Assembly: GCA_963822945.1 (NCBI GenBank)
Contig: CAWGJO010000027.1
Location: 128,001-192,000 of the forward strand
Origin: an uncultured Gemmatimonadaceae bacterium
Lineage (GTDB): Bacteria > Gemmatimonadota > Gemmatimonadetes > Gemmatimonadales > Gemmatimonadaceae
Length of the DNA stretch: 64,000 nucleotides
Direction of reading: 5' to 3'
In this document: piece by piece, positions 96 through 26,358 of the stretch
How positions within the stretch are numbered: position 1 is the stretch's first letter
Layout: each line of letters begins with the position of its first letter
Notes under the pieces: generated by a model
What the model saw: the letters and a program-made list of their open reading frames with translations, nothing else
Database searches by the model: none
Told to the model about the DNA's origin: nothing
Program-made: the position numbers and the translations under genes

Positions 96-2750
96 GTGGA
101 CGCCCATCGGTGGGACCGGATCCAGGAGTTGTTTCACGCTGCGGCCGACCTTCCCCGGGGCGAACGCGAGGCCTGGCTCCGCACCGCCTGCAGCGACGAC
201 CGGGACCTCCTCGCGGACGTGCTCGCCCTGCTGGCCGAGGATGACCGCGACGGCACGATTCTGGACGAGGAGCTCGCCGTTGTGGCCGAGCGCACCCTGG
301 AGCCCGGAATACCGCCGGCCCTGCTCGACCAGCGGTTCGGACCGTGGCGCATCGTGCGGGTGCTGGGCGAAGGCGGGATGGGCGTGGTGTACCTGGCCCG
401 GCGGGACGATCTCGGGAGCCTGGCGGCGGTCAAGATCCTCCGGGACGCGTGGCTCTCACCCGCCCGGCGCGAGCGCTTTGCCGCAGAGCAACGGACCCTC
501 GCGCGGTTGAACCACCCGTCCATCGCGCAGCTCTACGACGCGAACACCCTTCCGGACGGCACGCCCTGGTTCGTCATGGAGTACGTGGATGGATCCACGC
601 TCACCGACTACTGCGCCCACCACGCCGCTTCCGTGGCCGAGCGTCTCCGGCTCTTCCGCGCCGTGTGCGATGCGGTGCAACACGCGCACCAGCACCTCGT
701 CATTCATCGCGACCTGAAGCCCTCCAACGTGGTGGTCAAGGCGGACGGGAGCCTCAAGCTGCTGGATTTTGGCATTGCCAAGCAGCTCGACGCACTGGAC
801 GATCCGGCCGATCAGACGCGGACGGACATCCGCTTCATGACCCCGGCCTACGCGGCACCCGAACAGATCCGCGGTGAGCCCGTTGGTGTGCACACCGACA
901 TCTACTCGCTCGGCGTCATTCTCTACGAACTACTCGTCGGGCGCCTGCCGTTCGATTTCGCGCACCGAACGCTGGCCGATGTCGAGCGCACGATCACGGA
1001 GCGTGAGCCGGAACGCCCCTCGGCGGCAGCGTCGCGCATGCGCCGCCTGCAGGGCGAGGCCCGCGGCGCGGTCTCAGCCGGCCGCTCGGCCTGGGCCGAC
1101 CTCGACGTGCTCTGCCTCACCGCCATGCACAAGGATCCCGCCCGCCGGTACCGTTCGGTGGAAGCGCTGATTCGCGACCTGGACCATTTCATGGCCGGCG
1201 AGCCGTTGGAGGCGCGGCCGGATACCTGGAGCTACCGGCTCGGAAAGTTCTCGCGGCGCAACTGGCGACCGCTGGCGGCCGCCGGAATCGTGTTGACGAT
1301 GGTGGTCGGACTGGTGGCCTTCTATACATATCGTCTCGCGTCCGCCCGCAACAACGCGGTGACCGAAGCGGCCCGCACCACGCGGATTCAGGAATTCATG
1401 CTGAGCCTGTTCAGCGGTGGCGAGGCCGATGTCGGACCCGCCGACACGCTTCGGGTGATCACGCTGGTAGACCGTGGACTGCGAGAGGCCAAGGCCCTGG
1501 AGGGAGACACATCGACGCAGGCGCAGCTCTACGAGACCCTGGGCGGGGTCTACCAGCAGCTGGGCAAGCTGGGGCGAGCCGATACCCTGCTCCAGGCCGC
1601 CCTCGCCGAACGGCGGGCGTTCTACCGAGGCGACAGTCACGAGACCGCGCAGAGCCTGGTCGCCCTCGGCCTGCTCCGGCAGGCTCAGGCCGAATACGAG
1701 GAGAGCGAGCGGCTGATCCGGCAAGGTCTGGCGATGCAGCAGCGGATCTCGCCGCTGGACGGCGCCGCCGTCGCCCGGGCGGAGACCGCACTTGGCGAAG
1801 TGCTGCAGGCGCGCGGCGACTATGACGCCGCCATTCCCCTGCTCGAAGTGTCGGTCCGGTTGCTCTCCGCAGACAGTGGAACCGACCTGTCCACGGCGCT
1901 CACCGACCTGGCCAACACCCACTTTTACGCCGGCCACTACGGCGTAGCCGACAGCCTCAACCGGCTGGTGCTCGCCATGGATCGCCGGCTGTACGGCCCG
2001 CGCCACCCGAATGTCGGCGAGGATCTGGTCAACCTCGGCGCCATCGACGCCGAGGCGGGACGATCCGTCCAGGCGGAGGCGTTCTACCGCCAGGCCATCG
2101 ATATCCTGAGCGCCTGGTACGGCAATGACAACCCGGAAACGGCATCGGTGCTCACCATGCTGGGGCGCGTCATGGTGGGTCAGAAGCGCTACGACGAGGC
2201 GGGCGATATCCTGCAGCGGGCGCTGGCGATTCAGGAACGAGTATACGGCCCGGTACATCCGCGGGTCGCGTCCGCACTGAACGAGTTGGGCAAGCTGGCG
2301 GAGCAGCGCGGTGACCTCGACGGAGCCGCCGCCGACTTTCGCCGGATGGCCGACATCTACCGCCGCGTATATGGGGGTCACCACTATCTGCTGGGGATCG
2401 CGCTGTCCAACCTGGCAGGGGTCGAGCAGCGGCGGAAGCAGTACGCCCGGGCGGAAGAGCTCTTCCGACAGGTAATCCGGCTATACAGCGAGGTGCTGAG
2501 TCCGGAGCACCAACTCATGGGGATCGCCCGGGTACGACTTGGGGCCGTGCTCGAGGACGAACACCGGTACTCCGATGCCCTGACCGAGAGCCGCGAAGGC
2601 TACCGCATCCTGACGGCGCAAGCGTCGCCGCCGCGCGACTGGGTGGAAACGGCGCGCAAGCACATTGCCGATGACTACGACGCCCTAGGGCAGCGCGACG
2701 AAGCCGCGCGGTTCCGCACGGCACTGACGGACTCCGCCGCCCATCGTTGA
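96..2750 (+). CDS. Membrane-anchored Ser/Thr protein kinase with C-terminal TPR repeats
   Basis: GEGGMGVVY, AVK, HRDLKPSN, DFG, TPAYAAPEQ motifs; TM segment (LAAAGIVLTMVVGLVAF); repeated HPxxAxxLxxLG TPR units. Confidence 0.95.
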   Translation: MDAHRWDRIQELFHAAADLPRGEREAWLRTACSDDRDLLADVLALLAEDDRDGTILDEELAVVAERTLEPGIPPALLDQRFGPWRIVRVLGEGGMGVVYLARRDDLGSLAAVKILRDAWLSPARRERFAAEQRTLARLNHPSIAQLYDANTLPDGTPWFVMEYVDGSTLTDYCAHHAASVAERLRLFRAVCDAVQHAHQHLVIHRDLKPSNVVVKADGSLKLLDFGIAKQLDALDDPADQTRTDIRFMTPAYAAPEQIRGEPVGVHTDIYSLGVILYELLVGRLPFDFAHRTLADVERTITEREPERPSAAASRMRRLQGEARGAVSAGRSAWADLDVLCLTAMHKDPARRYRSVEALIRDLDHFMAGEPLEARPDTWSYRLGKFSRRNWRPLAAAGIVLTMVVGLVAFYTYRLASARNNAVTEAARTTRIQEFMLSLFSGGEADVGPADTLRVITLVDRGLREAKALEGDTSTQAQLYETLGGVYQQLGKLGRADTLLQAALAERRAFYRGDSHETAQSLVALGLLRQAQAEYEESERLIRQGLAMQQRISPLDGAAVARAETALGEVLQARGDYDAAIPLLEVSVRLLSADSGTDLSTALTDLANTHFYAGHYGVADSLNRLVLAMDRRLYGPRHPNVGEDLVNLGAIDAEAGRSVQAEAFYRQAIDILSAWYGNDNPETASVLTMLGRVMVGQKRYDEAGDILQRALAIQERVYGPVHPRVASALNELGKLAEQRGDLDGAAADFRRMADIYRRVYGGHHYLLGIALSNLAGVEQRRKQYARAEELFRQVIRLYSEVLSPEHQLMGIARVRLGAVLEDEHRYSDALTESREGYRILTAQASPPRDWVETARKHIADDYDALGQRDEAARFRTALTDSAAHR

Positions 2751-2764
2751 GGGCCCCTCCCGGC

Positions 2765-5700
2765 TCACCGCCCTCCCCCGCTGCCGCCTCTGCCGTTGTT
2801 GTGGAACGACTTGTCCGGATACGGCGGCGGTGCCGGCACGGGCCGCGGATCGGCCTTGATCTCGGCGCGCAGCTCCTTGATCGCCGCGGCCAGTTGCGCG
2901 TCATGCCCTTCGAAGGTCGCGTGCGGCAGGTTGTCCACCGTGATGTCGGGATCCACCCCGTGCCCCTCGATCATCCACGTTCGATCGGGCAGGTAGGTGC
3001 CCATCTCGGCCGCGCTCGCGATGCCCCGGTCCACCATCACGTTCTGCTGGCTGAGCCAGATCTCCCCGCCCCACGTGCGCACCCCGATCACCTTGCCGAG
3101 CCCAAGCTGCCGGAATCCCTCGGCGAACGCCTCGCCGTCGGAGGCCGTGTGCGCGTCGGTGAGCAGCACGATGTGTCCGCGGAACGCGTACTGCATGTTC
3201 CAGGTCGGATTGCCGACGCGCGACTTGAAGTAGAACCAGGCCTTCCGGATCAGCTTCTCCAGGATCCAGCTGTCGATGTTGCCGCCGCGGTTGTGGCGGT
3301 CGTCGATGATCAGGCCCTGGCGCTGGAACACCGGATAGAAGTCGCGCTCCCACTGATTGATGTCGGCCGTTCCCATGGCGCGCAGGTGGATGTAGCCGAT
3401 CGAGTCGTGGGCAATGGAATCCACGGCCAGCCGGCGCGTGTATTCCCATTCCGAGTAGCGCAGACTCGATGCGTCGCGCTGCGTGATGGGCTCCACCACC
3501 ACCTCGTGCTCGGCGCCGTTTCCGCCCGTCTTCACGGACAGCAGCATCTGGCGTCCCGCCTCGTTGCGCAACAGCGCGCCGAGCGCCGGCGCCGAGAGCG
3601 TCGGCACGTGGTTCACGGCGGTGATCACGTCCCCTTCGTGCACGTCCACGCCGTAGCGGGCCAGCGGCGAGAGTTCGTCGGGCCCGTCGGGATCATTGCG
3701 ATAGATGTGCTGCACGCGATACCCGCCCGCCGCTTCGTCGCGCACGAACTCGGCGCCGAGCGCAGCGGGGTGGATCGAGTCGTCGGGGGTGCGCATGTCG
3801 CCGCCACGCACGAAGGTGTGCAGCGTGGACAGTTCGCCCATGGTCTGCGAGAGCAGGTTGTTCAACTCCGACCGATCGGTGACGCGGCTGACGAGCGGCT
3901 CGTACCGCTGCCGGATCAGCTTCCAGTCCACGCCGTTCATGGCCGGGTTGTAGAAGTAGTCCCGTTCCAGACGCCAGGCGTCGATGAATTCGTCGTGCCA
4001 CTCGTCGCGCGGCACGATGCGGATGGCCCAGTGGCTGAGATCCACCTTGTGCTTCCCACTGTCGTTGGGCGCCTTGGCGGCTGCGTCGTACACGAAGAAC
4101 TCGTTGCCGCGGCGCACCATCACCTTGCGCCCGTCCAACGACAGTTCGTACTGGCGCACGCCGCTGGCAAAGGCCGTCGGTTTGGCCGGCGTGTTGCCGA
4201 TGGGATAGGTCATGAGCCGCGCGCCACCACCACCGCGGCCACCTCGTCCGGCACCTGCCGCGCCGCGTTCCAGGAAGTAGAGACGCGTGCCGTCGGTGGA
4301 GAGATCGCTGTAGTCGCCGGGCGCCAGCGGAAGTTGGACGAGCCGCTGCTCGATGCCGTTGAAGTCGATGCTGACGTTGGCGGGAGCGTGGACCGCCGCG
4401 CGCCCACCCCGGGCCCCGCGCATCTGCTCCCCGCGCGCCGGCGCGCTGTCTTCGGACGCGAGCGAGCGCACCGGATCGGTGAGTTCGTTGGCGGGCGCGA
4501 AGGGCGACGTCGCATCGGGCTGCAGCGCGAGCCCGTACATCTGGGTCGTATGGTCGAAGTAGGGCTCGGGCTGCCGCGCGCCCCACGGCGAACCCACCGC
4601 GCTCTGGAAGTGCCGGTCGGAGAGGAAGTACAGCCACTTGCCGTCCGTGCTCCACACGGGGCTGTAACTGCTGTACCGGTCGGTGGTCACGCGCACGCTC
4701 TTGCCGCTGGCGATGCCGTAGATCCGGATCTGGTCGAACTGGTTGTCGGCCGCCGCCACGTACGCCAGCCACCTGCTGTCCGGCGACCAGGCGTAGTCCA
4801 TGATCTGGCTCGCACTGTCCTCGGCGATCAGCGTCTCGCGTCCCGTGGCCAGATCGAGCAGCCAGAGCCGCTCGTTCTTGTCGGAGTGGGCGACGTACTT
4901 CCCGTCGGGCGACGGCATGCCGTCCCAGCGCAGCTCGGTGGCGCCGGTGGTGAGCTGCTTCTGGGCGCTCCCATCCATCGGCACGTTCCAGAATTCCACT
5001 TCACCGCTCTTGTCGGAGAGCGTGAGCAGCGATTTGCCATTCGGCATGAAGCGCGCGATGCGATAGCGCACGCCCTGGTCGTGCGTGGCCTGCGCCAGCC
5101 GACCGCCGGCGTCGCCGGTGGGCGCGACGAACACCTGGCCGCGCGCGTCGAGCACCAGCCGGTCGCCGGTGGGGGAAAGGTGCGCCGAAGTGAGGAGCGC
5201 CATCGGGTCGGTGTCCCACTTCTCGCGCGTCTGATCGAAGTCCGAGAGGAGCCGGATCGGGATCAGCGCGTCCCTGCCCGATGCGATGTCGTAGACGCGG
5301 AGATCGGCGCCGAGCTGGTACACGATTTTGCCGTCGCCGAGCGAGGCCGACTGGATGTCGTACACCGGATGGTGCGTGAGCTGCTTGAGGTCGTGCCCCT
5401 GTTCGTCCATCGACCAGAGGTTCATGATGCCGTCGCGATCGCTCAGGAAGTAGATGCGCCCCTTGTACGGCATCGGATCCTTGCTGGTGCCGGTGTAGTC
5501 GGCAGTCAGCGGCTGCGCCTCGGCGCCGTTCCGGGCGAATCGCCAGATATTCTGCGCGGTGCCGCCCTTGTAGCGCTTGGTGTGGCTGCCCTGGAAGGGA
5601 TAGCGCGTGAAGAAGAACGTTCCGTTGGCGTCGTAGCTTCCGTCGGCCGCCTGGGCCAACGGCACCAGCCCGTGCGACCCGTCGGCGGGGTTCACCCATC

Positions 5701-14633: not shown

Positions 14634-15044
14634 ATGCCGAAATCACTGATCAAATCCCCCCAGCTCCCCGCGCTCCGCGATTCTGCGTACCAGATCTGGC
14701 TGGCCGGACTGGGCGCGCTCTCGATGGCCGAGGATGAGAGCGGGAAGATCTTCAAGACGCTCGTCAAACGGGGCAAGACCTTCGAAGCGGCGAGCAAGGA
14801 TCGCCTGACCAACGTGCGGAACGCCCTCGACATCCGGAAAGCGGCGAGCGACACGATGAGCCGCATCACCGACAACCTGGACGACGGGGTGAACGGGGTG
14901 CTGGGTCGCCTGGGTCTGCCGAGCAAGAAGGAGATCGATGCGCTCGGCAAGCGGGTCGATCGGCTCACGAAGGCGCTCGAAGAGAAGCCGGTGAAGCGGG
15001 CACGCCGGGCGCCGGCGAAACGCCGCCGCGCTGCGACGGTCTGA
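14634..15044 (+). CDS. Phasin / granule-associated protein (PhaF/PhaI-like)
   Basis: QIWLAGLGALS..E.E.GKIFKTLVKRG and RLGLPSKKEIDAL motifs; basic C-tail; AGGAG RBS. Confidence 0.9.
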   Translation: MPKSLIKSPQLPALRDSAYQIWLAGLGALSMAEDESGKIFKTLVKRGKTFEAASKDRLTNVRNALDIRKAASDTMSRITDNLDDGVNGVLGRLGLPSKKEIDALGKRVDRLTKALEEKPVKRARRAPAKRRRAATV

Positions 15045-15047
15045 TGA

Positions 15048-15128
15048 GTCGGTAGGTCGGTAGGTCGGTAGGTCGGAGAACGACGAACGTGGTTGACGTT
15101 CGGACGTACCGACCTACCGCCCTACCGA
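15048..15128. repeat. 8-bp tandem repeat (GTCGGTAG)x3.5 with inverted copy, forming a long hairpin
   Basis: 15048-15076 versus TACCGAC-CTACCGCC-CTACCGA at 15107-15128; inner hairpin CGAACGT-ggttg-ACGTTCG. Confidence 0.85.
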
Positions 15129-15166
15129 TGCACGAGCTTCCGACCGGCACGAACTCGGAGATTGCC

Positions 15167-16396
15167 ATGCCCTCTTCACGCAAGCCGAAGATCGGTCTCG
15201 CGCTCGCCGGCGGCGGGCCGGTGGGTGCGATGTACGAGATCGGCGCGCTGCGCGCGCTCGAGGAGGCCGTGGACGGGCTCGATCTCAATCACGTGCACAG
15301 CTACGTGGGCGTGAGCGCCGGATCGTTCATTGCCGCCTGTCTCGCCAACGGGCTCACCACCACGCAGATGCTGCGCGCCGCGCTGCGCGACGAGCCCGGC
15401 GTGAACCCGCTGCGTCCCGAGATCTTCTTCACGCCGGCGTACCGCGAGTTCGTGCATCGCGGATTCAAGCTGCCGCGGCTGCTCGCGGAATCGGTGGCCG
15501 AATTCGTTCGGCGGCCGGGGGCGCAGGGGCTCGGCTCGGCGATGAACTATCTGATGCAGGCGCTCCCCGTCGGCGTGTTCGACAACGAACCCATCCGCGC
15601 CTACATGCACGAGATCTTCTCGATGGAAGGGCGCACCGACGATTTCCGGGAGCTCGGCGGCCGGCTCACCGTCGTTTCCGCCGATCTGGATTCGGGGCGT
15701 GCCATCCGGTTCGGCGGCCCGGGGTGGGACCACGTGCCGATCTCCACGGCGGTGCAGGCGAGCACCGCGGTACCGGGGCTCTATCCCCCGGTGTGCATCG
15801 AGGGGCGGCAGTGCGTGGACGGGGTGCTCCTCAAGACCGTACACGCGTCGGTGGCGCTGGAGCAGGGCGCCGACCTGCTGTTCTGCATCAACCCCATCGT
15901 GCCCATCGACGCGGCCGCCGCCGCGGCGGCGGGGCGGCTGCCCGACGACGTCGTGGTGCAGTCGGGCTTGCCGGCCGTGCTGTCGCAGACCTTCCGGACC
16001 CTCATCCACTCGCGGCTGCGCGTGGGCTTCGCCCGATATTCGACGCGCTTTCCCGATGCCGACGTCGTTCTGCTGGAACCCGACGAGATGGAGTACGAAC
16101 TGTTCTTCGCCAACGTGTTCAGCTTCCGGTCGCGCCGCCACATCTGCCGCAGCGGGTACGAGGCCACACGTCGCATCCTGCGCCAGCGCTACGACGAACT
16201 CGAGCCGGTGCTCGCGTCGCACGGCCTCGACCTGCGCGCGGATGTGCTGGAGGACCGGACCCGCGATCTCTGGAGCAGCGCCGGGTTGGCGCCCGACACC
16301 AGGCCGCGCGTGGCGCCGCCCAGCGTGACCGATGCGCTCAGTCGTGCGCTCGATCGGGTCGAGGCGGTAGCGGCCGCTCGCTCAGCCGCCAGATGA
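15167..16396 (+). CDS. Patatin-like phospholipase/esterase
   Basis: Oxyanion motif LAGGGPVG, nucleophile GVSAG, DGV (DGG-like); GGAG RBS before ATG 15167. Confidence 0.9.
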   Translation: MPSSRKPKIGLALAGGGPVGAMYEIGALRALEEAVDGLDLNHVHSYVGVSAGSFIAACLANGLTTTQMLRAALRDEPGVNPLRPEIFFTPAYREFVHRGFKLPRLLAESVAEFVRRPGAQGLGSAMNYLMQALPVGVFDNEPIRAYMHEIFSMEGRTDDFRELGGRLTVVSADLDSGRAIRFGGPGWDHVPISTAVQASTAVPGLYPPVCIEGRQCVDGVLLKTVHASVALEQGADLLFCINPIVPIDAAAAAAAGRLPDDVVVQSGLPAVLSQTFRTLIHSRLRVGFARYSTRFPDADVVLLEPDEMEYELFFANVFSFRSRRHICRSGYEATRRILRQRYDELEPVLASHGLDLRADVLEDRTRDLWSSAGLAPDTRPRVAPPSVTDALSRALDRVEAVAAARSAAR

Positions 16397-17556
16397 AGGT
16401 CCCCTGGGCCTCGCAGCGCTGTTCGCGGGTCATGCCGCGGTAGCCGCATGGCGGCCGGCGCAGCCACCGCGCCAGCGAGAGCAGCGGCCATCCGAACGGC
16501 AGATAGAACGCCAGCAGGTCGAAGTCGCGCAGCGCGGCGTGGAGCCAGTTTCGCGCCGGCGGGCGCCGGCGGTCGCGGTCGTTGCGGATGAACGTGACCG
16601 GCCATCCCGTGGGGAGCACGTGCCGCAGGATGCCGCGCGCTCCCGCCTTGCGCAGGCCGGCGCGCAGCGACTGCCAGTTGTACGGCCGTTGGCCATACTG
16701 CGCCACCTGCGCGTTCAGTTGCGCCTGCATCAGCTTGCGGAACCGGTGCGCCGCGCGGTCGAGCGCATTTCGATCAGGCTCGTCGTGATCGGACACGCCC
16801 ACCTCGTGCAGCACCGACCAGACATCGATCGGATCGCCGATCACGAACGTCATGTGCGCGGGCAGCGCCAGATACCACATCCACGGAAAGATCACTGCCA
16901 GCAGCCCCGCCGGCAGCGGCAGGAATGGCACGTGGAAGAAGCGCTGCATCACGCCGGTCCAGCGGCGGGAAGGTGACGTGGAAGGGCATCACCCATTCCG
17001 CGTTCACCACCGACACCGGGTAGATGGGCACGTCGTGGCGCGCCGCCAGCCGCACGAAGCTCGTCCGGAAGCGCTGCAGTTGGTAGCGATGCTGGAAGCC
17101 CTTCCCGATGCCCGGCACGCCCTCGGGGTAGTAGATCACGCGATCGCCGCGTTCGAGCAGGCGCTCGAAGTTGTCGAACGTCATGTCCACACCGCCGCCG
17201 CGCCGCCAGAGGTTGTCCACGCCGAACGGCCGCATCCACCACGCCAGCGTGAGTTCCTTCTCGAACACCGAACGACACTTGGCCTCGGGGCGCAGCCCGT
17301 CACGGCGCCAGAGCGCGAAGTCGAACACGATGGCGTCGTATGGAAACGCGGTGCCGCTGTGGTTCGTGGCGATTACCGCCGGCCCCTCGGCCGGCAGCTT
17401 CTCGGCACCAATCATGCGCGCCCGGAAGTAGTAGTCCGAGAGCGGCCCCACGGCATGCTTCAACAGGTCGCGGCAGTAGTCGGCCTCGAACGGCTCGTAG
17501 TCGTTGGCCGTGCGCGCTTCGCCGGCCGGCGGGAGCATGGTCGCGGTGGGCGTCAT
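16338..17556 (-). CDS. Glycerolipid acyltransferase (PlsC/DGAT-like), frameshift near 16953
   Basis: NHSGTAFPYD and YYPEGVPG motifs in the first frame; continues as VMQRFFHVPFLP...GDPID in a second frame after one extra base. Confidence 0.75.
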
Positions 17557-17560
17557 CGGA

Positions 17561-19273
17561 TCACCCGCCGCGCCGGAAGGCCAGCAGCACGGCGGCCGCG
17601 AACAATCCCGCCCACAGTGGCCAGGTGCCGCCGAACGCCATGATGATCGCGCCGGCCACCAGGCAGAACCCCGCCAGCAGCGTGGCCCGCACGCCCTGCA
17701 GCGGGTTCTCCGCCGGCGGCCGCGTGCTGCGCTCCAGCACGCGCACACCCTCGGTGACCAGCGACGGCAGCTTCACCGCCGCATCGATCAGCTCGGGCGC
17801 TCCCCGCAGGCCCTCGTGCACGAAGCGCAAGGGACTGAACTGCTCCAGGAACACCGTGCGGATGTGCCGCCGCGACACGTCGGCCACGTCGAAGTCGGGA
17901 AGCAGCACGTGCCCCACCCCCTCGAACGTCACCAGCGCCTTGACCATGAGCACCAGTTCCACCGGGAAGTACATCCGGTACTGCGCGCCGCGGGTCACCG
18001 ACTCCAGCACCAGCTGGGCGAGCGAGAACGAGTCGAAGCTCGACGCCCGGTGCCAGCGGGCCGAGATCTCCGACACGTCGCGGCGGAATCCGGCTGGATC
18101 GCCGTCCCGGCCCGGCTCTGCCACCGCCGCCAGGTAGCGCGCCGCGTTCTCGTGGTCGCCGGTCACCAGCGAGTAGTAGTAGTACAGCAGCGCCCGCCGC
18201 AGGTCGCTCTCGAACCGCCCCACCATGCCGAGGTCGATGAACCCCACGCGGGCGCCCGGCAGCACGAGCAGGTTGCCCGGATGCAGGTCGGCGTGGAAGA
18301 AGCCGTCGCGGTAGAGCATCCGGATGATCGACTCGGAGCCCAGGTCCACCAGGTGATCCCGTTCCTCCTCGCTCAGCGCCAGCGCTTCCGGCGAATCCGG
18401 ACGTACGCCGTCCAGGTATTCCATCGTCAGCACGCGCATCCCGCTGCGGTGCCGGTCCACCGTCGGGAAGACGACGTCCGACATGTCGCGGAAGTTGGTC
18501 GCGAAGTTCTCGGCGTTGTCGGCTTCGCGGCGCAGGTCCACCTCGCGGAGCGTGTACTCGCAGAACTCGGCGATGATGCGTTTGGGCTGATAGCGCGGGA
18601 TCACCGCCTGGAGGCCGGCGCCGAGCACGCGCAACAGGCGCGCGTCACGCTTGAGCGTCTCGGCCACGCCCGGCTTCACCGCCTTGATCACCACGTCTTC
18701 ACCGGTGAGCGTCGTCGCCCGGTGGATCTGCGCAATGGAGGCGGAGCCCAGCGGCTCGGGGTCGATCCACGAGTACAGCCGGTCCACCGGACGGCCGAGG
18801 TCCCGCTCCACGAGCGCCGTGAACTGCGCGAACGGAATCACCGGCAGCCGGTTGAGCAGGTTGCGCAGTTCGGTCGTCACCGAATGCGGCAGGATGTCCT
18901 CGCGCAGACTCAGGATCTGCCCGAGCTTGATGTACGTGGGACCCAGCAACTCCAGCCGGCGGCGGAACTGCTGGGGAAAGGGCAGGTCCACCAGGTCGCG
19001 CCGCAGCAGGGGGTGCGTGACGGCGCCGATGGCCCGCGCCAGTGCGTACTTGAGGCCCTTGGCGGTGGGCGCGTCGCGCTGCGCGCGCGTCCAGGCGATG
19101 ATCGCACCAAACAGCAGACCCGCCAGGTGGCGGTTGGTGCTCATGGCGCGGCGCACGATGCCCGGCGGCGGACGAGTGCTCGCTTGCTCGACCACGGCCG
19201 CCGGTTCATGCCCAACGGCCGACTGTCGACTCGCCGCCGGCGGCCGCATCTTCACCGCCGCATGCGCCGTCAT
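17561..19273 (-). CDS. ABC1/UbiB (AarF) atypical kinase with C-terminal TM helices
   Basis: YIKLGQILS, SASIAQIH, FFHADLHPGN, IDLGMVG; ATGA overlap with HMG-CoA reductase stop. Confidence 0.93.
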   Translation of the reverse strand: MTAHAAVKMRPPAASRQSAVGHEPAAVVEQASTRPPPGIVRRAMSTNRHLAGLLFGAIIAWTRAQRDAPTAKGLKYALARAIGAVTHPLLRRDLVDLPFPQQFRRRLELLGPTYIKLGQILSLREDILPHSVTTELRNLLNRLPVIPFAQFTALVERDLGRPVDRLYSWIDPEPLGSASIAQIHRATTLTGEDVVIKAVKPGVAETLKRDARLLRVLGAGLQAVIPRYQPKRIIAEFCEYTLREVDLRREADNAENFATNFRDMSDVVFPTVDRHRSGMRVLTMEYLDGVRPDSPEALALSEEERDHLVDLGSESIIRMLYRDGFFHADLHPGNLLVLPGARVGFIDLGMVGRFESDLRRALLYYYYSLVTGDHENAARYLAAVAEPGRDGDPAGFRRDVSEISARWHRASSFDSFSLAQLVLESVTRGAQYRMYFPVELVLMVKALVTFEGVGHVLLPDFDVADVSRRHIRTVFLEQFSPLRFVHEGLRGAPELIDAAVKLPSLVTEGVRVLERSTRPPAENPLQGVRATLLAGFCLVAGAIIMAFGGTWPLWAGLFAAAVLLAFRRGG

Positions 19274-20508
19274 CGATTGCGTCCCAGCTGCTCGTGCGCC
19301 GACACCCACTCCAACGACGAGATCGCCGACGCCAGCGACAATTCGCCGGCCAGCACGGTGGCGGCCACGATTTCGGCCAGCTTGTCGACGTGGCCCTTGC
19401 CCCAACAGCCGAGCATCTGCAGACATTCGCGCTGCGTGGGCAGGTGCGTGCCGCCGCCGTGCGTGGCCACGATCAGGCTCGGGATGGTGATCGAGAAGTA
19501 CAGGCTGCCGTCGTGCGTGATCTCCGTGTAGGTCGTGGCCGCCGCGCCCTCGGTCACGTTGGCCACGTCCTGGCCGGTGGCGATGAACATCGCCGTGATC
19601 GCGTTGGCGGAGTGCAGCCCGTTGTTGTTGGCGCCCGAGAGCAGCGCGGCGACGTTCGCCACACCCCAGTGGTAGGCCAACTGCTCAGGCTCGGCGTGCA
19701 GATGCTTGCGGAGGAGATCGTGCGGAATCGTGGCCTCGGCCGTCACACGCTTGCCGCGCGGATGCAGGATGTTGACGCGCGACGCCTTCTTGTCGGTGGC
19801 GAAGTTCGACTCGAGGTACGCGCGGCGCACCGCGCGGTGGTTGGCCAGGATCCACTGATAGGCCGCGTACGTCGCCTTGCCCACCATGTTCTGTCCGGCC
19901 GCGTCGCCCGTGGTGAAGTTGAACCGGAGAAACGCGAACTTGTTGGACAGGAAGGGCTCGATGTGCGTGAGCCGGGCCACGTGCGACGTCGCCTGGGCCA
20001 CGGCGCGAATCGCGTCCATGTGCGCTTCGATCCACCCCAGGAAATCGCGGGCCTCGCGGGCCGACTCGAAGATGAACACCGGCGCCCGCTGCATGCCGTC
20101 GCCGGACACGGTGGTCTTCACGCCGCCGGCCAGACTCACGACCTTCATGCCCCGGCTGTACGACGCCACCAGAGAGCCTTCGGTGGTTGCGAGCGGGATG
20201 AAGAAGTCGCCGTGCGCATGCTCGCCGTCGATGTACAGCGGCCCCGCGATGCCGAGCGGCACCTGCGCCACCCCGGTGAAGTTCTCGATGTTGCCGCGCG
20301 TCTCCGACGGCTCGAGCGAGTACGAGGACACGTGCTTCAGGCGCACGCCGCGCTCGCGCTCGACGAACGCCTGCCGTGCGGCGATCAGCGCCGGTTCGTA
20401 GTCCTCGGGCCGCCCCTTGGCATGTGGGATGTGGTCGACGTCGGCGTTGTGAGTCGCGGAGGCGGCGGGCGCGGACCCGCGATCGACCAGGGAGGATGAC
20501 GTACCCAT
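19270..20508 (-). CDS. HMG-CoA reductase, class I-like catalytic domain
   Basis: ENFTG, PLATTEGSLVAS, TGDAAGQNM, TDKK, GQDVA, GGGT, C-terminal His (AHEQLGR); alternative GTG start at 20529. Confidence 0.9.
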   Translation of the reverse strand: MGTSSSLVDRGSAPAASATHNADVDHIPHAKGRPEDYEPALIAARQAFVERERGVRLKHVSSYSLEPSETRGNIENFTGVAQVPLGIAGPLYIDGEHAHGDFFIPLATTEGSLVASYSRGMKVVSLAGGVKTTVSGDGMQRAPVFIFESAREARDFLGWIEAHMDAIRAVAQATSHVARLTHIEPFLSNKFAFLRFNFTTGDAAGQNMVGKATYAAYQWILANHRAVRRAYLESNFATDKKASRVNILHPRGKRVTAEATIPHDLLRKHLHAEPEQLAYHWGVANVAALLSGANNNGLHSANAITAMFIATGQDVANVTEGAAATTYTEITHDGSLYFSITIPSLIVATHGGGTHLPTQRECLQMLGCWGKGHVDKLAEIVAATVLAGELSLASAISSLEWVSAHEQLGRNR

Positions 20509-20794
20509 TGGTCCCTCGTGGATGGACACCGTAGGATGTGCGCGAACGTCTGCCCCAGGTATCAGGTGCGTGCGCCGGATCTGTAGGCCGTTCCCTCACG
20601 CTCTCCGGGTCGGCCCTTGGCGGTCGGCAGTTCGGGATTCGTTGCTGAGTGCCGACGGTCGACTCTCGACGCGAAACACCCGAGTGTTCGCCGCCACCTG
20701 TTCCCTCCACTCTCCCTACGCGGCGTCCTCCTGCTGCATGGAGAAGTTCAGGGTTTTCCTGAATTGGCGGAACTTTCGAAAGGGGCGAACTTCA

Positions 20795-21093
20795 CTTCGT
20801 GTTCGCGGACGGGAATACCGCGAACGGAGCCAACCCGCGGGATACCGTCGGCTGGCAGCGCGGTGGGAGTTCGACCCCAACTGCGCAGGTTGTGAGGTCG
20901 CTGGACACAACTGTAGTCCCGAGAGCCAAGGGGCACCTGAATCGGTCCCGTCCGATGAGGGTAAGATTGCCGGCCAGATCACCTGTTCGCATGTCTTCAG
21001 TGCCGTCGCTCAGGTGAAGCCGAAACGACCGACCGGTAATCGCCAGCGGGTCAGAACCCTCGCCGGAGGCAGTGATGCCGACGACGAGGGTTC
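20795..21093 (+). ncRNA. Candidate large structured non-coding RNA, family not recognised
   Basis: At least seven compatible helices in a gene-free gap (see findings); G-U and GNRA pattern favours + strand. Confidence 0.55.
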
Positions 21094-21154
21094 GCCACAT
21101 CCGGGCCTCGCGTACCGAGCGTATCACCACGTCGCACGCACACGGAGGTGAACG

Positions 21155-21580
21155 ATGAGCTCCGGTCTCACGACGCTCCCCGTGGGCGAGTGGCGCGTGG
21201 AGTTGCGCGGCGACACGCGTGACGAACTGTTCAGCCGGGTCGCCACGCTGATCGCGTGCGCGGCGGGCCGTACCAATGGCACGCACGGCACGTGGGAGCC
21301 GGTCGCGCTGTCGGCGCGCGACGACGCCGCGCTCCTCGCCGGCTGGGCCAACGAACTCATCGGACGCGGCGAGGCCTCGGGCATGGCCTACGCCGAGGTG
21401 CGCAACATCGAACTCTCGCCGCCGGGGGGCCGCGCGTCTCCGGCGTGGCATCTTACCGCGGAGATTCGCGGTCGCCCGGTGGACGATTGGCGATCGTCGC
21501 TCAAGGCGGCCAATGGCCGCCGGGCAGGACTCGAGCGTCGCGGCGGCCAGTGGCACGCCACGTTATCGTTCGATATCTGA
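21155..21580 (+). CDS. Archease-like protein, divergent
   Basis: GGAGGT RBS; size 141 aa; pattern V.L.G....ELF, LLAGWANELI, LTAEIRG, LKAA, W.ATLSFDI matches archease fold and terminal FDI. Confidence 0.75.
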   Translation: MSSGLTTLPVGEWRVELRGDTRDELFSRVATLIACAAGRTNGTHGTWEPVALSARDDAALLAGWANELIGRGEASGMAYAEVRNIELSPPGGRASPAWHLTAEIRGRPVDDWRSSLKAANGRRAGLERRGGQWHATLSFDI

Positions 21581-24797: not shown

Positions 24798-25088
24798 ATG
24801 CTGAATTCGATCCGCCGTTCCCTCTCCGACCCCCAGATTCAGACCGTCCTCGGCGAGCGGCTCCGCAGCTACCGCAAGGCCCACGGCCTCTCCCTCGACG
24901 CACTCGCCGAACGGACCGGACTCTCCGCGCTCACCATCCACAAGGCCGAGCACGGCGGCAACTTCACCATCCGCACGCTGCTCCGGGTGCTGCGCGCCCT
25001 GGACCGCCTCGAGCAGCTCGACGCCTGCCTGCCACCGGCCCCGCGTTCACCGCTCGACCTCATCGACGAGGAATCCCCGGTTGGCTGA
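24798..25088 (+). CDS. XRE-family HTH antitoxin (HipB-like)
   Basis: LGERLRSYRKAHGLSLDALAERTGLSALTIHKAEHG; overlaps the hipA-like gene by 8 bp. Confidence 0.88.
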   Translation: MLNSIRRSLSDPQIQTVLGERLRSYRKAHGLSLDALAERTGLSALTIHKAEHGGNFTIRTLLRVLRALDRLEQLDACLPPAPRSPLDLIDEESPVG

Positions 25089-26358
25089 CCGCATCGCCGC
25101 ACGCATCGTGCTCTGGGACCGCACCGTCGGCGCCGTGGCCGAGGAGCCGTCGGGACAGGTGGTGTTCCAGTACGACCCCGCGTTCCGCCGCAGCGGTTTG
25201 GAAATCTCGCCGCGGCATCTCCCGCTCTCGCTCGCGGCGCCCATCACCTTTCCCGCGCTCCGCCACCTCGAGGCGTTCATGGGACTCCCCGGCGTACTCG
25301 CCGACGGACTCCCCGACCGGTTCGGCAGCGCGCTCATCCGCCAGTACTTCACTCGCGCGGGCACGCCGGAGAAGGCGGACCGCCCCATCCAGCGCCTGCT
25401 CTACGTGGGGCGCCGCGCCATGGGCGCGCTGGAGTTCCTGCCCGCGCTCGACGTCGGCCCCGCGGTGGAGGAGATCATCCAGCTCAAGCACCTGGTGGAC
25501 GAGGCGCGGATCGTGGTGCAGGGAAAGTTCGACGTCGCGGTGCCCGAGATGATGCGCATGGGAACTTCGGCCGGTGGCGCGCGCCCCAAGGCTCTGATTC
25601 TCTGGAACCGGAAGACGAACGAGGTCCGGAGCGGATTCGCCGCGCCCGGCGAGGGCGACGAATCGTGGATGCTCAAGTTCGACGGCGTCGGAGAACTCGA
25701 CGCTCCCAATCCGCACCCGCAGCCCTATACGCGAATCGAGTACGCCTACACGCGCATGGCCGGCGCCGCGGGACTCGCGACCACGGAAGTCGAACTGCTC
25801 CCCGACCGGCGGCTGCATCATCTGCTCGTCAAGCGGTTCGACCGCGACGACGCCGGGCGCCTCCACTACCACAGCCTTGGCGGGATCGACCACGCCGACT
25901 ACAACGCGCCCGGCGCCTATTCGTACGAACAGTACCTGCTCGTCTGCCGCGAACTCGGCCTCGGGCCGGCCGAGCTCGACGAAGCATTCCGGCGCGCCGT
26001 GTTCAACGTCGCGGCCGTCAATCAGGACGACCACGTGAAGAACTTCGGCTTCCTCATGGATCGCCACGGGCGCTGGTCGCTCGCGCCGGCCTTCGACCTC
26101 ACCTACGCGCAGGGCGCGGGGTACACGCGCCGGCACCAGATGACGCTGAACGGAAAGACCGACGGCTTCACGCGCGACGACCTGCTCGCGTTGGGCCGCT
26201 CGCTCGGCGTCAGGAAGGACGGTGCGCTCGTGATCGATCGGGTGCTCGACGCGGTGGGCCAGTGGCCGGAGTTCGCCGCCGACGCCGGGGTGCCGGCCGA
26301 TCGCGCGCGGGCCATCGGGGCGGCGCACCGGCGCACGGCGCTCGCCGCCACACGGTAG
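25081..26358 (+). CDS. hipA: HipA-family toxin kinase
   Basis: LADGLPDRFG, TSAGGARPKA, LKFD, KRFDR, NQDDHVKNF, LAPAFDL. Confidence 0.93.
   Translation: MADRIAARIVLWDRTVGAVAEEPSGQVVFQYDPAFRRSGLEISPRHLPLSLAAPITFPALRHLEAFMGLPGVLADGLPDRFGSALIRQYFTRAGTPEKADRPIQRLLYVGRRAMGALEFLPALDVGPAVEEIIQLKHLVDEARIVVQGKFDVAVPEMMRMGTSAGGARPKALILWNRKTNEVRSGFAAPGEGDESWMLKFDGVGELDAPNPHPQPYTRIEYAYTRMAGAAGLATTEVELLPDRRLHHLLVKRFDRDDAGRLHYHSLGGIDHADYNAPGAYSYEQYLLVCRELGLGPAELDEAFRRAVFNVAAVNQDDHVKNFGFLMDRHGRWSLAPAFDLTYAQGAGYTRRHQMTLNGKTDGFTRDDLLALGRSLGVRKDGALVIDRVLDAVGQWPEFAADAGVPADRARAIGAAHRRTALAATR

Follow-up and report, generated by a model that had tools for sequence, protein, structure and literature searches.

Between a divergent HMG-CoA-reductase-like gene and an archease gene of the genome G000 lies a stretch of about 300 nt dense in potential helices, and the question raised by this locus is whether it encodes a structured RNA and, if so, of what kind and with what role. 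The window is the whole stretch of DNA that was analysed, 64,000 nt in length, and the features that frame the question are the following:

19270..20529, minus strand: HMG-CoA-reductase-like gene (PF00368), divergent, first of a lipid operon; shares the intergenic region and a palindromic box with the RNA gene
20799..21096, plus strand: RNA gene, ~298 nt; limits taken from conservation, RNA-derived contigs over 20810-21095
21155..21580, plus strand: archease gene (PF01951), into which transcription of the RNA likely reads through

The sequence-only reading had proposed a large structured non-coding RNA outside Rfam, a claim now backed by covariation, held-out tests and RNA-derived contigs. The segment 20795-21093 folds beyond chance, as had been suspected (-138.5 kcal/mol, z = -3.86, with none of 200 dinucleotide shuffles as good), and the minus strand gave z = -2.79 in the same test; the plus strand was assigned because of G-U-tolerant covariation, the promoter and the terminal hairpin. 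No Rfam family reached its gathering cut-off in the window and nothing credible appeared even at E ≤ 10, while 20 diverse homologous loci searched against Rfam 15 gave no match, only sub-threshold hairpin scores. ARAGORN called no tRNA or tmRNA in the window, in line with the earlier remark that the element fits neither consensus. ORFs overlapping the element do lack the local codon bias (GC3 0.61–0.71 vs 0.85–0.91 in the flanking genes), the lengths of the homologues, taken modulo 3, fall into each of the three classes, and no reading frame is open throughout all 33 of 33 homologues; on these three grounds the element is non-coding and a protein-coding reading was ruled out.

Few bacterial RNAs are both large and intricately folded, and ribozymes and core machines are among those known. 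At more than 200 nt, with many covarying helices and pseudoknots, the element has the features of a large ornate standalone ncRNA, and it neither sits consistently in 5' leaders nor contains a conserved ORF. We regard it as very probable that it represents a real standalone structured RNA family of the Gemmatimonadota. No published description of the RNA was found by title or abstract, a coverage outside which paywalled papers fall, and the string 'Gemmat' is absent from the main texts of PMC11109978 and PMC8632094, the supplement of the former, which could list the RNA, lying outside the coverage. Within this partial coverage of the literature, the element is a new RNA family with a fold of its own and falls within a kind already known, the large ornate RNAs of bacteria.

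The architecture consists of nine helices in series, P1 to P9, and up to three long-range knots (PK1 to PK3):

20801..20825, plus strand: P1 hairpin, stem 20801-08/20818-25, loop 20809-14 being a PK1 partner
20829..20856, plus strand: P2 hairpin, P2a 20829-35/20850-56 and P2b 20837-40/20845-48
20858..20886, plus strand: P3 hairpin, stem 20858-64/20880-86, capped by the T-loop-like pentamer TTCGA (20870-74)
20888..20912, plus strand: P4 hairpin, stem 20888-94/20906-12, with the most conserved loop (20895-20905), a conservation inflated by the finding of most members through a P4-loop pattern
20916..20961, plus strand: P5 (20916-20/20930-34) and P6 (20936-45/20952-61, tandem G.A), the P6 loop 20946-51 being the other PK1 partner
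20965..21041, plus strand: P7 and a long P8, whose shared internal loop (P8/P7) holds a second T-loop-like pentamer, CCGAA (21020-24)
21054..21093, plus strand: P9 terminal hairpin, terminator-shaped but without a T-run here, GNRA loop 21072-75

In a comparative model of 93 pairs across 33 homologues, 91% of the 3033 cells were paired, 68 of the 93 pairs showed two-sided changes and none of 500 shuffles scored as high, a result to be read with the model having been drawn on the same alignment and with relatedness inflating the shuffle test. Slid controls of the same model were paired at 35–47%, and a second set of 34 distant members showed two-sided changes in 30 of 40 pairs. Every helix listed in the sequence-only reading is present where it had been placed, and P1, P3, P6 with its tandem G.A pairs, P7, P8 and the last hairpin all carry two-sided changes in the 33 homologues (11/11 pairs in P7 and 8/8 in P8). 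Two of the listed helices turned out not to be conserved: ACCCGC/GCGGGT, the long-range one, is paired in 75% of cells, and in GGAC/GTCC the A-column pair forms in only 9 of the 33; together they gave 2 pairs with two-sided changes vs 2.3 expected from shuffles, and both were dropped for showing no covariation above that expectation. The parts missing from the earlier list are P2 (94% paired, two-sided changes in 9/11 pairs), P4, P5 and the kiss between the P1 and P6 loops. As a variation on this theme, L115, L119, L151 and L168 have in P6 an inserted UUCG-capped hairpin in place of the usual PK1 loop.

In PK1, a covarying kissing-loop interaction, the P1 loop (20809-14) pairs with that of P6 (20946-51). 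A perfect 5-bp match was found in 63/88 members vs 26.4 ± 3.6 with partners shuffled, and in 42/67 held-out metagenome members vs 16.5 ± 3.2, the loops having been picked automatically, so that some of the misses are wrong picks. The pairing CGCTGG/CCAGCG (20899-904/21043-48), earlier offered as a possible alternative, proved to be a conserved core pseudoknot, PK2, which links the P4 loop with the strand preceding P9 and is 98.5% paired; it is near-invariant, with five of six pairs never varying in the 33 homologues, and compensatory variants occur in L027, L171 and L191. PK3, a covarying kiss between the P8 and P9 loops, belongs to the members with a short P8, where it matches in 33/44 vs 10.5 ± 2.5 when shuffled (held-out metagenome, 28/45 vs 10.7 ± 2.3) and shows two-sided changes in four of five pairs among the 34 distant members. 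None of the long-P8 members has it (0/38; held-out metagenome, 0/15). A GNRA loop on P9, on the other hand, was present in 27/38 long-P8 members and 13/15 held-out ones vs 6/44 and 3/45 among those with a short P8. The copy in the window has a long P8, a GNRA loop on P9 and no third knot, and we infer that in such copies the PK3 kiss is replaced by the GNRA loop docking on the longer P8. Because P9 takes part in PK3 in the short-P8 members and carries the GNRA loop in the long-P8 members, it is part of the fold and not a terminator alone; a T-run follows it in only 27/101 members. This natural exchange of a kissing loop for a GNRA loop is informative for RNA architecture.

A compact multi-knot fold, with core bases conserved beyond what pairing needs (the five invariant PK2 pairs), is also what a ribozyme could look like, either self-cleaving or processing another RNA, with the P4 loop and PK2 core as its active site. 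There was no match to any Rfam ribozyme, the carriers have a normal RNase P (5/5) and tmRNA (4/5 over the cut-off), and no joint indicative of a circle or skip was seen inside the element in the contigs of four RNA runs, which is weak evidence by its nature; overall, we consider a ribozyme very unlikely. A diverged tmRNA or RNase P was rejected, since no model matched and the canonical RNAs are present in 4/5 and 5/5 carriers, respectively; tmRNA was not found in G000, a genome 88% complete. A bacterial Y RNA was rejected as well, Ro60/TROVE being encoded in 2/151 genomes, neither of them a carrier.

The two T-loop-like pentamers would suit another possible function. The P3 loop reads TTCGA or TTCGG in 75/101 members, and the P8/P7 internal loop CCGAA or TCGAA in 54/101. 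Interdigitated T-loops, as they occur in the L1 stalk, T-boxes and RNase P, are described as a recurrent reader of the tRNA elbow (PMC4810234), and the element, with its two T-loop-like pentamers recognised by sequence, resembles both RNase P and T-boxes in this respect, although it matches neither and canonical RNase P is separately present in carriers. In a tRNA-binding RNA, the pentamers would interdigitate and stack on the elbow while GGU/UGG of the P4 loop reads the tRNA 3' end, the tRNA being sequestered or protected in dormancy and the rtcB and archease neighbours then being functional; the near-invariant P4 loop and the presence of rtcB or archease near some copies would suit such a role. 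However, the T-loop call is a sequence pattern alone, the UGG is paired internally in PK2 with compensatory changes in L027, L171 and L191, the P4 loop finds no long complement among the 57 tRNAs of G000 (longest 7 nt, in one), and archease and the RNA do not co-occur across genomes. Binding of tRNA is thus quite unlikely.

Nearly all members of the family come from the Gemmatimonadota. BLAST gave matches in 31/100 relatives, including 15/16 within the genus and several genomes with two copies, the weakest matches being short and at chance level. The P4-hairpin pattern occurred in at least 121 stretches of a genome collection; among the matches listed, the profile was reached by 95, of which by title 92 are Gemmatimonadota, one is Steroidobacteraceae, one Gammaproteobacteria and one unclassified, and the other 26 of the 121 listed, none titled Gemmatimonadota, were rejected for failing to extend. 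All 100 of 100 metagenome pattern loci match the profile, and in total more than 150 distinct homologues were collected. With a covariance model of the core, 24/151 genomes of the phylum gave matches, of which the three weakest (G168, G184, G044) were coding sequence without the fold and were dropped, leaving 21 carriers (G000, 9/31 in family f1, 1/74 in f2, 1/1 in f4 and 9/16 in f7), a number that may have missed some since only 22 candidates were scored per genome. The spread is thus patchy, at 21 of 151 genomes. The seed genome aside, weak matches alone, at E 6e-4 to 7e-3, were obtained in 6/151 genomes of an Acidobacteriota-centred sample and 6/120 further genomes in a Steroidobacteraceae-family sample; the four and two of these, respectively, that were inspected were coding sequence without the fold and were rejected. 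Carriers have one or two copies, G000 having one, and the cultured Gemmatirosa kalamazoonensis KBS708 has the RNA at two places on plasmid NZ_CP007130.1. Two copies lie ~2 kb apart on one contig at L079, and likewise at L145 and L146. Full-length copies are also present in two gammaproteobacterial assemblies (L080, L144), L080 being flanked by peptide deformylase and LysM genes; this gene setting makes horizontal transfer, rather than mis-binning, plausible for that copy.

Patchy spread, paired copies in several genomes, varied neighbours and the two gammaproteobacterial assemblies could also reflect a selfish or mobile structured element, such as a non-autonomous retro-element or a transposon-associated RNA, with no host function. 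The number of copies per genome is, however, one or two, and the 225 flanking proteins compared (Pfam, E ≤ 1e-8) included none from a transposase, reverse transcriptase or nuclease family, so that neither the many copies nor the linked transposase or reverse transcriptase of a mobile or repeat element was observed. Likewise, none of at least 121 viral pattern loci passes the profile and a phage collection gave no match. A regulated promoter and synteny within genera also speak against this explanation, which we regard as highly improbable.

To place the RNA relative to its neighbours, 87 distinct loci were scored with a simple codon-bias ORF caller for the nearest downstream gene within 700 nt. 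This gene was convergent in 32 loci and co-oriented in 30, with none in range in 25, and as convergent genes were as frequent as co-oriented ones, a general riboswitch role, one of the options of the sequence-only reading, is not supported for the family. Furthermore, a comparison of 225 of the 260 flanking ORFs with Pfam returned highly varied functions and no shared downstream function; the copies are not consistently 5' of co-oriented, functionally related genes, as riboswitches would be. A cis-acting riboswitch or attenuator could still be pictured for the downstream operon, which in some same-genus copies encodes a thiamine-binding protein, archease and RtcB, and P9 would then serve as the terminator: P9 is terminator-shaped and PK2 lies immediately 5' of it, one RNA-derived contig bridges the RNA end and the archease, and 30 of the 87 loci do have a co-oriented gene within 700 nt. 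But this leaves the 32 convergent genes, a copy without archease (L009), the lack of shared downstream functions and the part played by the P9 loop in the tertiary fold of short-P8 members, and makes such control in cis highly unlikely.

The identification of the downstream gene as an archease was correct (PF01951, E 4.5e-9). A fixed tie to RNA ligation, which had been suggested from this gene, was not sustained at the homologue loci, where archease lies near few copies, nor by any enrichment in carrier genomes. Archease was found in 8/95 listed locus records, some of which duplicate each other, and rtcB in four; in 1/100 metagenome loci, of which 39 extend at least 1 kb downstream; and in 5/21 carrier genomes vs 39/130 others, co-occurrence counts that are lower bounds because the family search missed the archease of the window itself. 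In family f1, the RNA is present in 3/3 archease-positive genomes vs 6/28 others, a weak hint of shared clustering. Two copies of the same genus (L010, L016) are followed by genes for a thiamine-binding protein, archease and RtcB, while the G000 locus keeps archease alone and a 95% identical copy, L009, has lost it and faces a convergent gene; the archease in the window is best read as a remnant of this downstream operon. Together with rtcB it looks like one of several dormancy-type neighbours. Elsewhere in G000, a second archease gene followed by rtcB was observed (C21:282402-284280), with the archease profile match in two pieces (1-81 and 91-136), possibly through a frameshift, and a gap in the rtcB match at residues 239-317.

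Evidence of transcription came from environmental RNA. Part of a 1.1-kb query was present in 20 metatranscriptome runs, drawn from 14 studies whose records name soil, sediment, salt marsh, plant or estuary as the source, and the contigs of four runs, all RNA runs and chosen because they contain the stretch, were mapped; such contigs show neither strand nor ends nor level. In run X1, pieces of 220 and 337 nt had no differences, which implies a near-identical organism in the sample. The summed contig depth, a poor expression measure as it adds up relatives, reached 221,563 and 152,535 in two bins within the element of this run, compared with 4–49 on the divergent gene, ~12 on the archease and none at 20613-20713. 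One X1 contig, spanning 21032-21368 without differences, bridges P9 and the archease. In run X2, single contigs on the element had depths of 2,000–5,350, two of them ending at 21095, and one RNA-derived contig carries, beyond 21097, a loose poly(A) end. In X2 and X9, only 3 of 30 bins had cover, and these all fall on the element; with contigs, uncovered regions prove nothing. The contigs support transcription of the element and suggest high abundance.

6S (RF00013) and Ms1 are standalone RNAs that are abundant in stationary or stressed cells, and the very high depth in environmental RNA would also suit an RNA of this kind, one binding to RNA polymerase during stationary phase and taking the place of 6S in these lineages. 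Rfam 6S was found in none of five carriers, and its nine matches in the 151 genomes of the phylum all fall in families without the element; this mutual exclusion says little, because 121 of the 151 genomes have neither RNA. As the multi-branched three-knot fold is no rod with a central bubble, we consider a 6S/Ms1-like function decidedly unlikely. Membership in the 6S family itself was rejected, the element having neither an RF00013 match nor the rod-and-bubble fold of 6S. As a separate observation, 142 of the 151 Gemmatimonadota genomes, including all those of f1, f2 and f7, gave no Rfam 6S match.

The sequence upstream of the RNA contains two predicted control elements:

20747..20763, no strand: palindromic box, 17 bp with 6-bp arms and a 5-nt spacer, directly 5' of the -35 hexamer
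20764..20792, plus strand: predicted promoter, -35 TTGGCG (20764-69), 17-nt spacer, weak -10 GAACTT (20787-92), start near 20799

From this arrangement, transcription would start near 20799. A consensus scan of the window returned no promoter and no terminator site; homologues have better hexamers at the same spacing, with near-consensus sigma-70 hexamers in distant copies. In a motif search, the box was recovered in 46/84 upstream regions, 42 of them with the box 136–146 nt before P4, and a literature search returned nothing relevant on it. It is likely to be a binding site of a NarL/LuxR-type response regulator. The best other site in G000 precedes a HAMP-kinase and REC-GerE operon, and a similar box precedes that operon in 16/16 same-genus loci (scores 11.6–24.1 vs 3.3–13.2 for in-gene controls), compared with one of five other-genus loci, the other four lacking it and one unpublished genome being left out. 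At L220 (G000:C20:667352-670954), the box lies between this operon and a divergent PAS kinase, and the operon may encode the master regulator, itself autoregulated, of a DosR-like regulon in the genus.

Dormancy-type neighbours, defined as BON, CBS, Hsp20, erythromycin-esterase-like, phosphoribosyltransferase and archease/rtcB genes, occurred at 15/42 box-bearing loci vs 3/42 others (Fisher p = 0.003, post hoc, the categories having been picked with the data in view and kin not being independent). The box is absent at 38/84 copies, roughly half, and box-less copies lie by housekeeping genes, for example after rplU-rpmA; dormancy control is thus not family-wide. For comparison with the Mycobacterium tuberculosis DosR regulon, we take Rv2630 to be an archease, and CBS, Hsp20 and erythromycin-esterase-like genes presumably belong to that regulon too (family labels of Rv2626c, Rv2030c and Rv2031c). 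The regulon includes rtcB (Rv2631), Rv2630 and a phosphoribosyltransferase and has palindromic boxes, according to the accessible portions of PMC5309233 and PMC3177182, and the likeness extends over a palindromic box near the promoter, a NarL-type regulator, rtcB, a phosphoribosyltransferase and storage-lipid genes. The box described here differs in its 6-bp arms and 5-nt spacer, and both its link to the regulator and a hypoxia signal are putative. The region 14634-20529 of the window holds a storage-lipid cluster with phasin, patatin, an ABC1 kinase and the HMG-CoA-reductase-like gene, which has its box in common with the RNA promoter.

Our leading explanation, which we hold tentatively and with slightly less than even confidence, is that of a stable, abundant RNA acting in trans as a protein-binding scaffold or decoy in stress or low-oxygen dormancy. 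The RNA would be transcribed from its own promoter, from about 20799 to about 21096, and in many Gemmatimonadaceae copies a NarL/LuxR-type regulator may activate it through the box at -44. Its compact shape would likely result from the covarying helices and kissing loops, and it would probably accumulate as a stable molecule and act on a protein partner. In many Gemmatimonadaceae the setting could be a DosR-like stress or low-oxygen regulon, and in the genome of the window, transcription may read through from the RNA into the archease gene.

Among known RNAs, raiA/ModT (RF03072) offers the nearest parallel to such a trans-acting RNA, being abundant, stable and trans-acting with two pseudoknots in the available text of PMC11706538. 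Both it and the element are ~200–300 nt, standalone, with their own promoter and at least two pseudoknots, and frequently have a terminator-like 3' hairpin, while abundance, stability and a link to growth-phase transitions are features of raiA/ModT in the same partial source. The raiA model found nothing in five carrier genomes at E ≤ 10, and the element model R1 misses a real raiA locus. Moreover, raiA comes from a different phylum and has its 5' and 3' ends closed in one long helix P1, whereas the element is a hairpin chain locked by kissing loops; membership in raiA was rejected for want of an RF03072 match and of an end-closing P1 around the core. ROOL, GOLLD and OLE are similarly large, covarying and rich in kissing loops, with functions unknown or partly known; ROOL is reported to be abundant and non-essential, and the kissing loops of these RNAs can be intermolecular (PMC12286853). 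In contrast to these, the element is half their size or less, has no Rfam match and was not found in phages or tRNA islands. It would work like raiA/ModT in gene layout and probable abundance and like ROOL/OLE in its kissing loops, and is a member of neither. The smtA 'Soda Lake' motif is also large, lineage-restricted and structured, with unknown function; as described in the available text of PMC11109978, it is >350 nt, exclusive to Thioalkalivibrio and located upstream of smtA, a description that sets the element apart.

A reading that would combine several of these strands sees a dormancy RNA machine, in which a double T-loop platform and the PK2 core bind or process tRNA with RtcB and archease co-induced, which would add a fourth, independent elbow reader to the ribosome, RNase P and T-boxes and place it among the most abundant unrecognised RNAs in metatranscriptomes of soil and sediment; we consider this unlikely. 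The RNA has a strong presence in environmental RNA from a phylum of soil and sediment bacteria that is widespread and barely studied. Its size suits cryo-EM, and the cultured strain KBS708 makes it testable.

Two minor observations concern the surroundings of the RNA. In family f7, the copies L194, L195, L197 and L199 have a 5' extension of ~60–100 nt with extra hairpins and lie mostly directly after rplU-rpmA, with a strong promoter upstream and a convergent chorismate-mutase gene opposite. In the window, an HTH antitoxin-like gene overlaps a HipA-family gene at 24798-26358.
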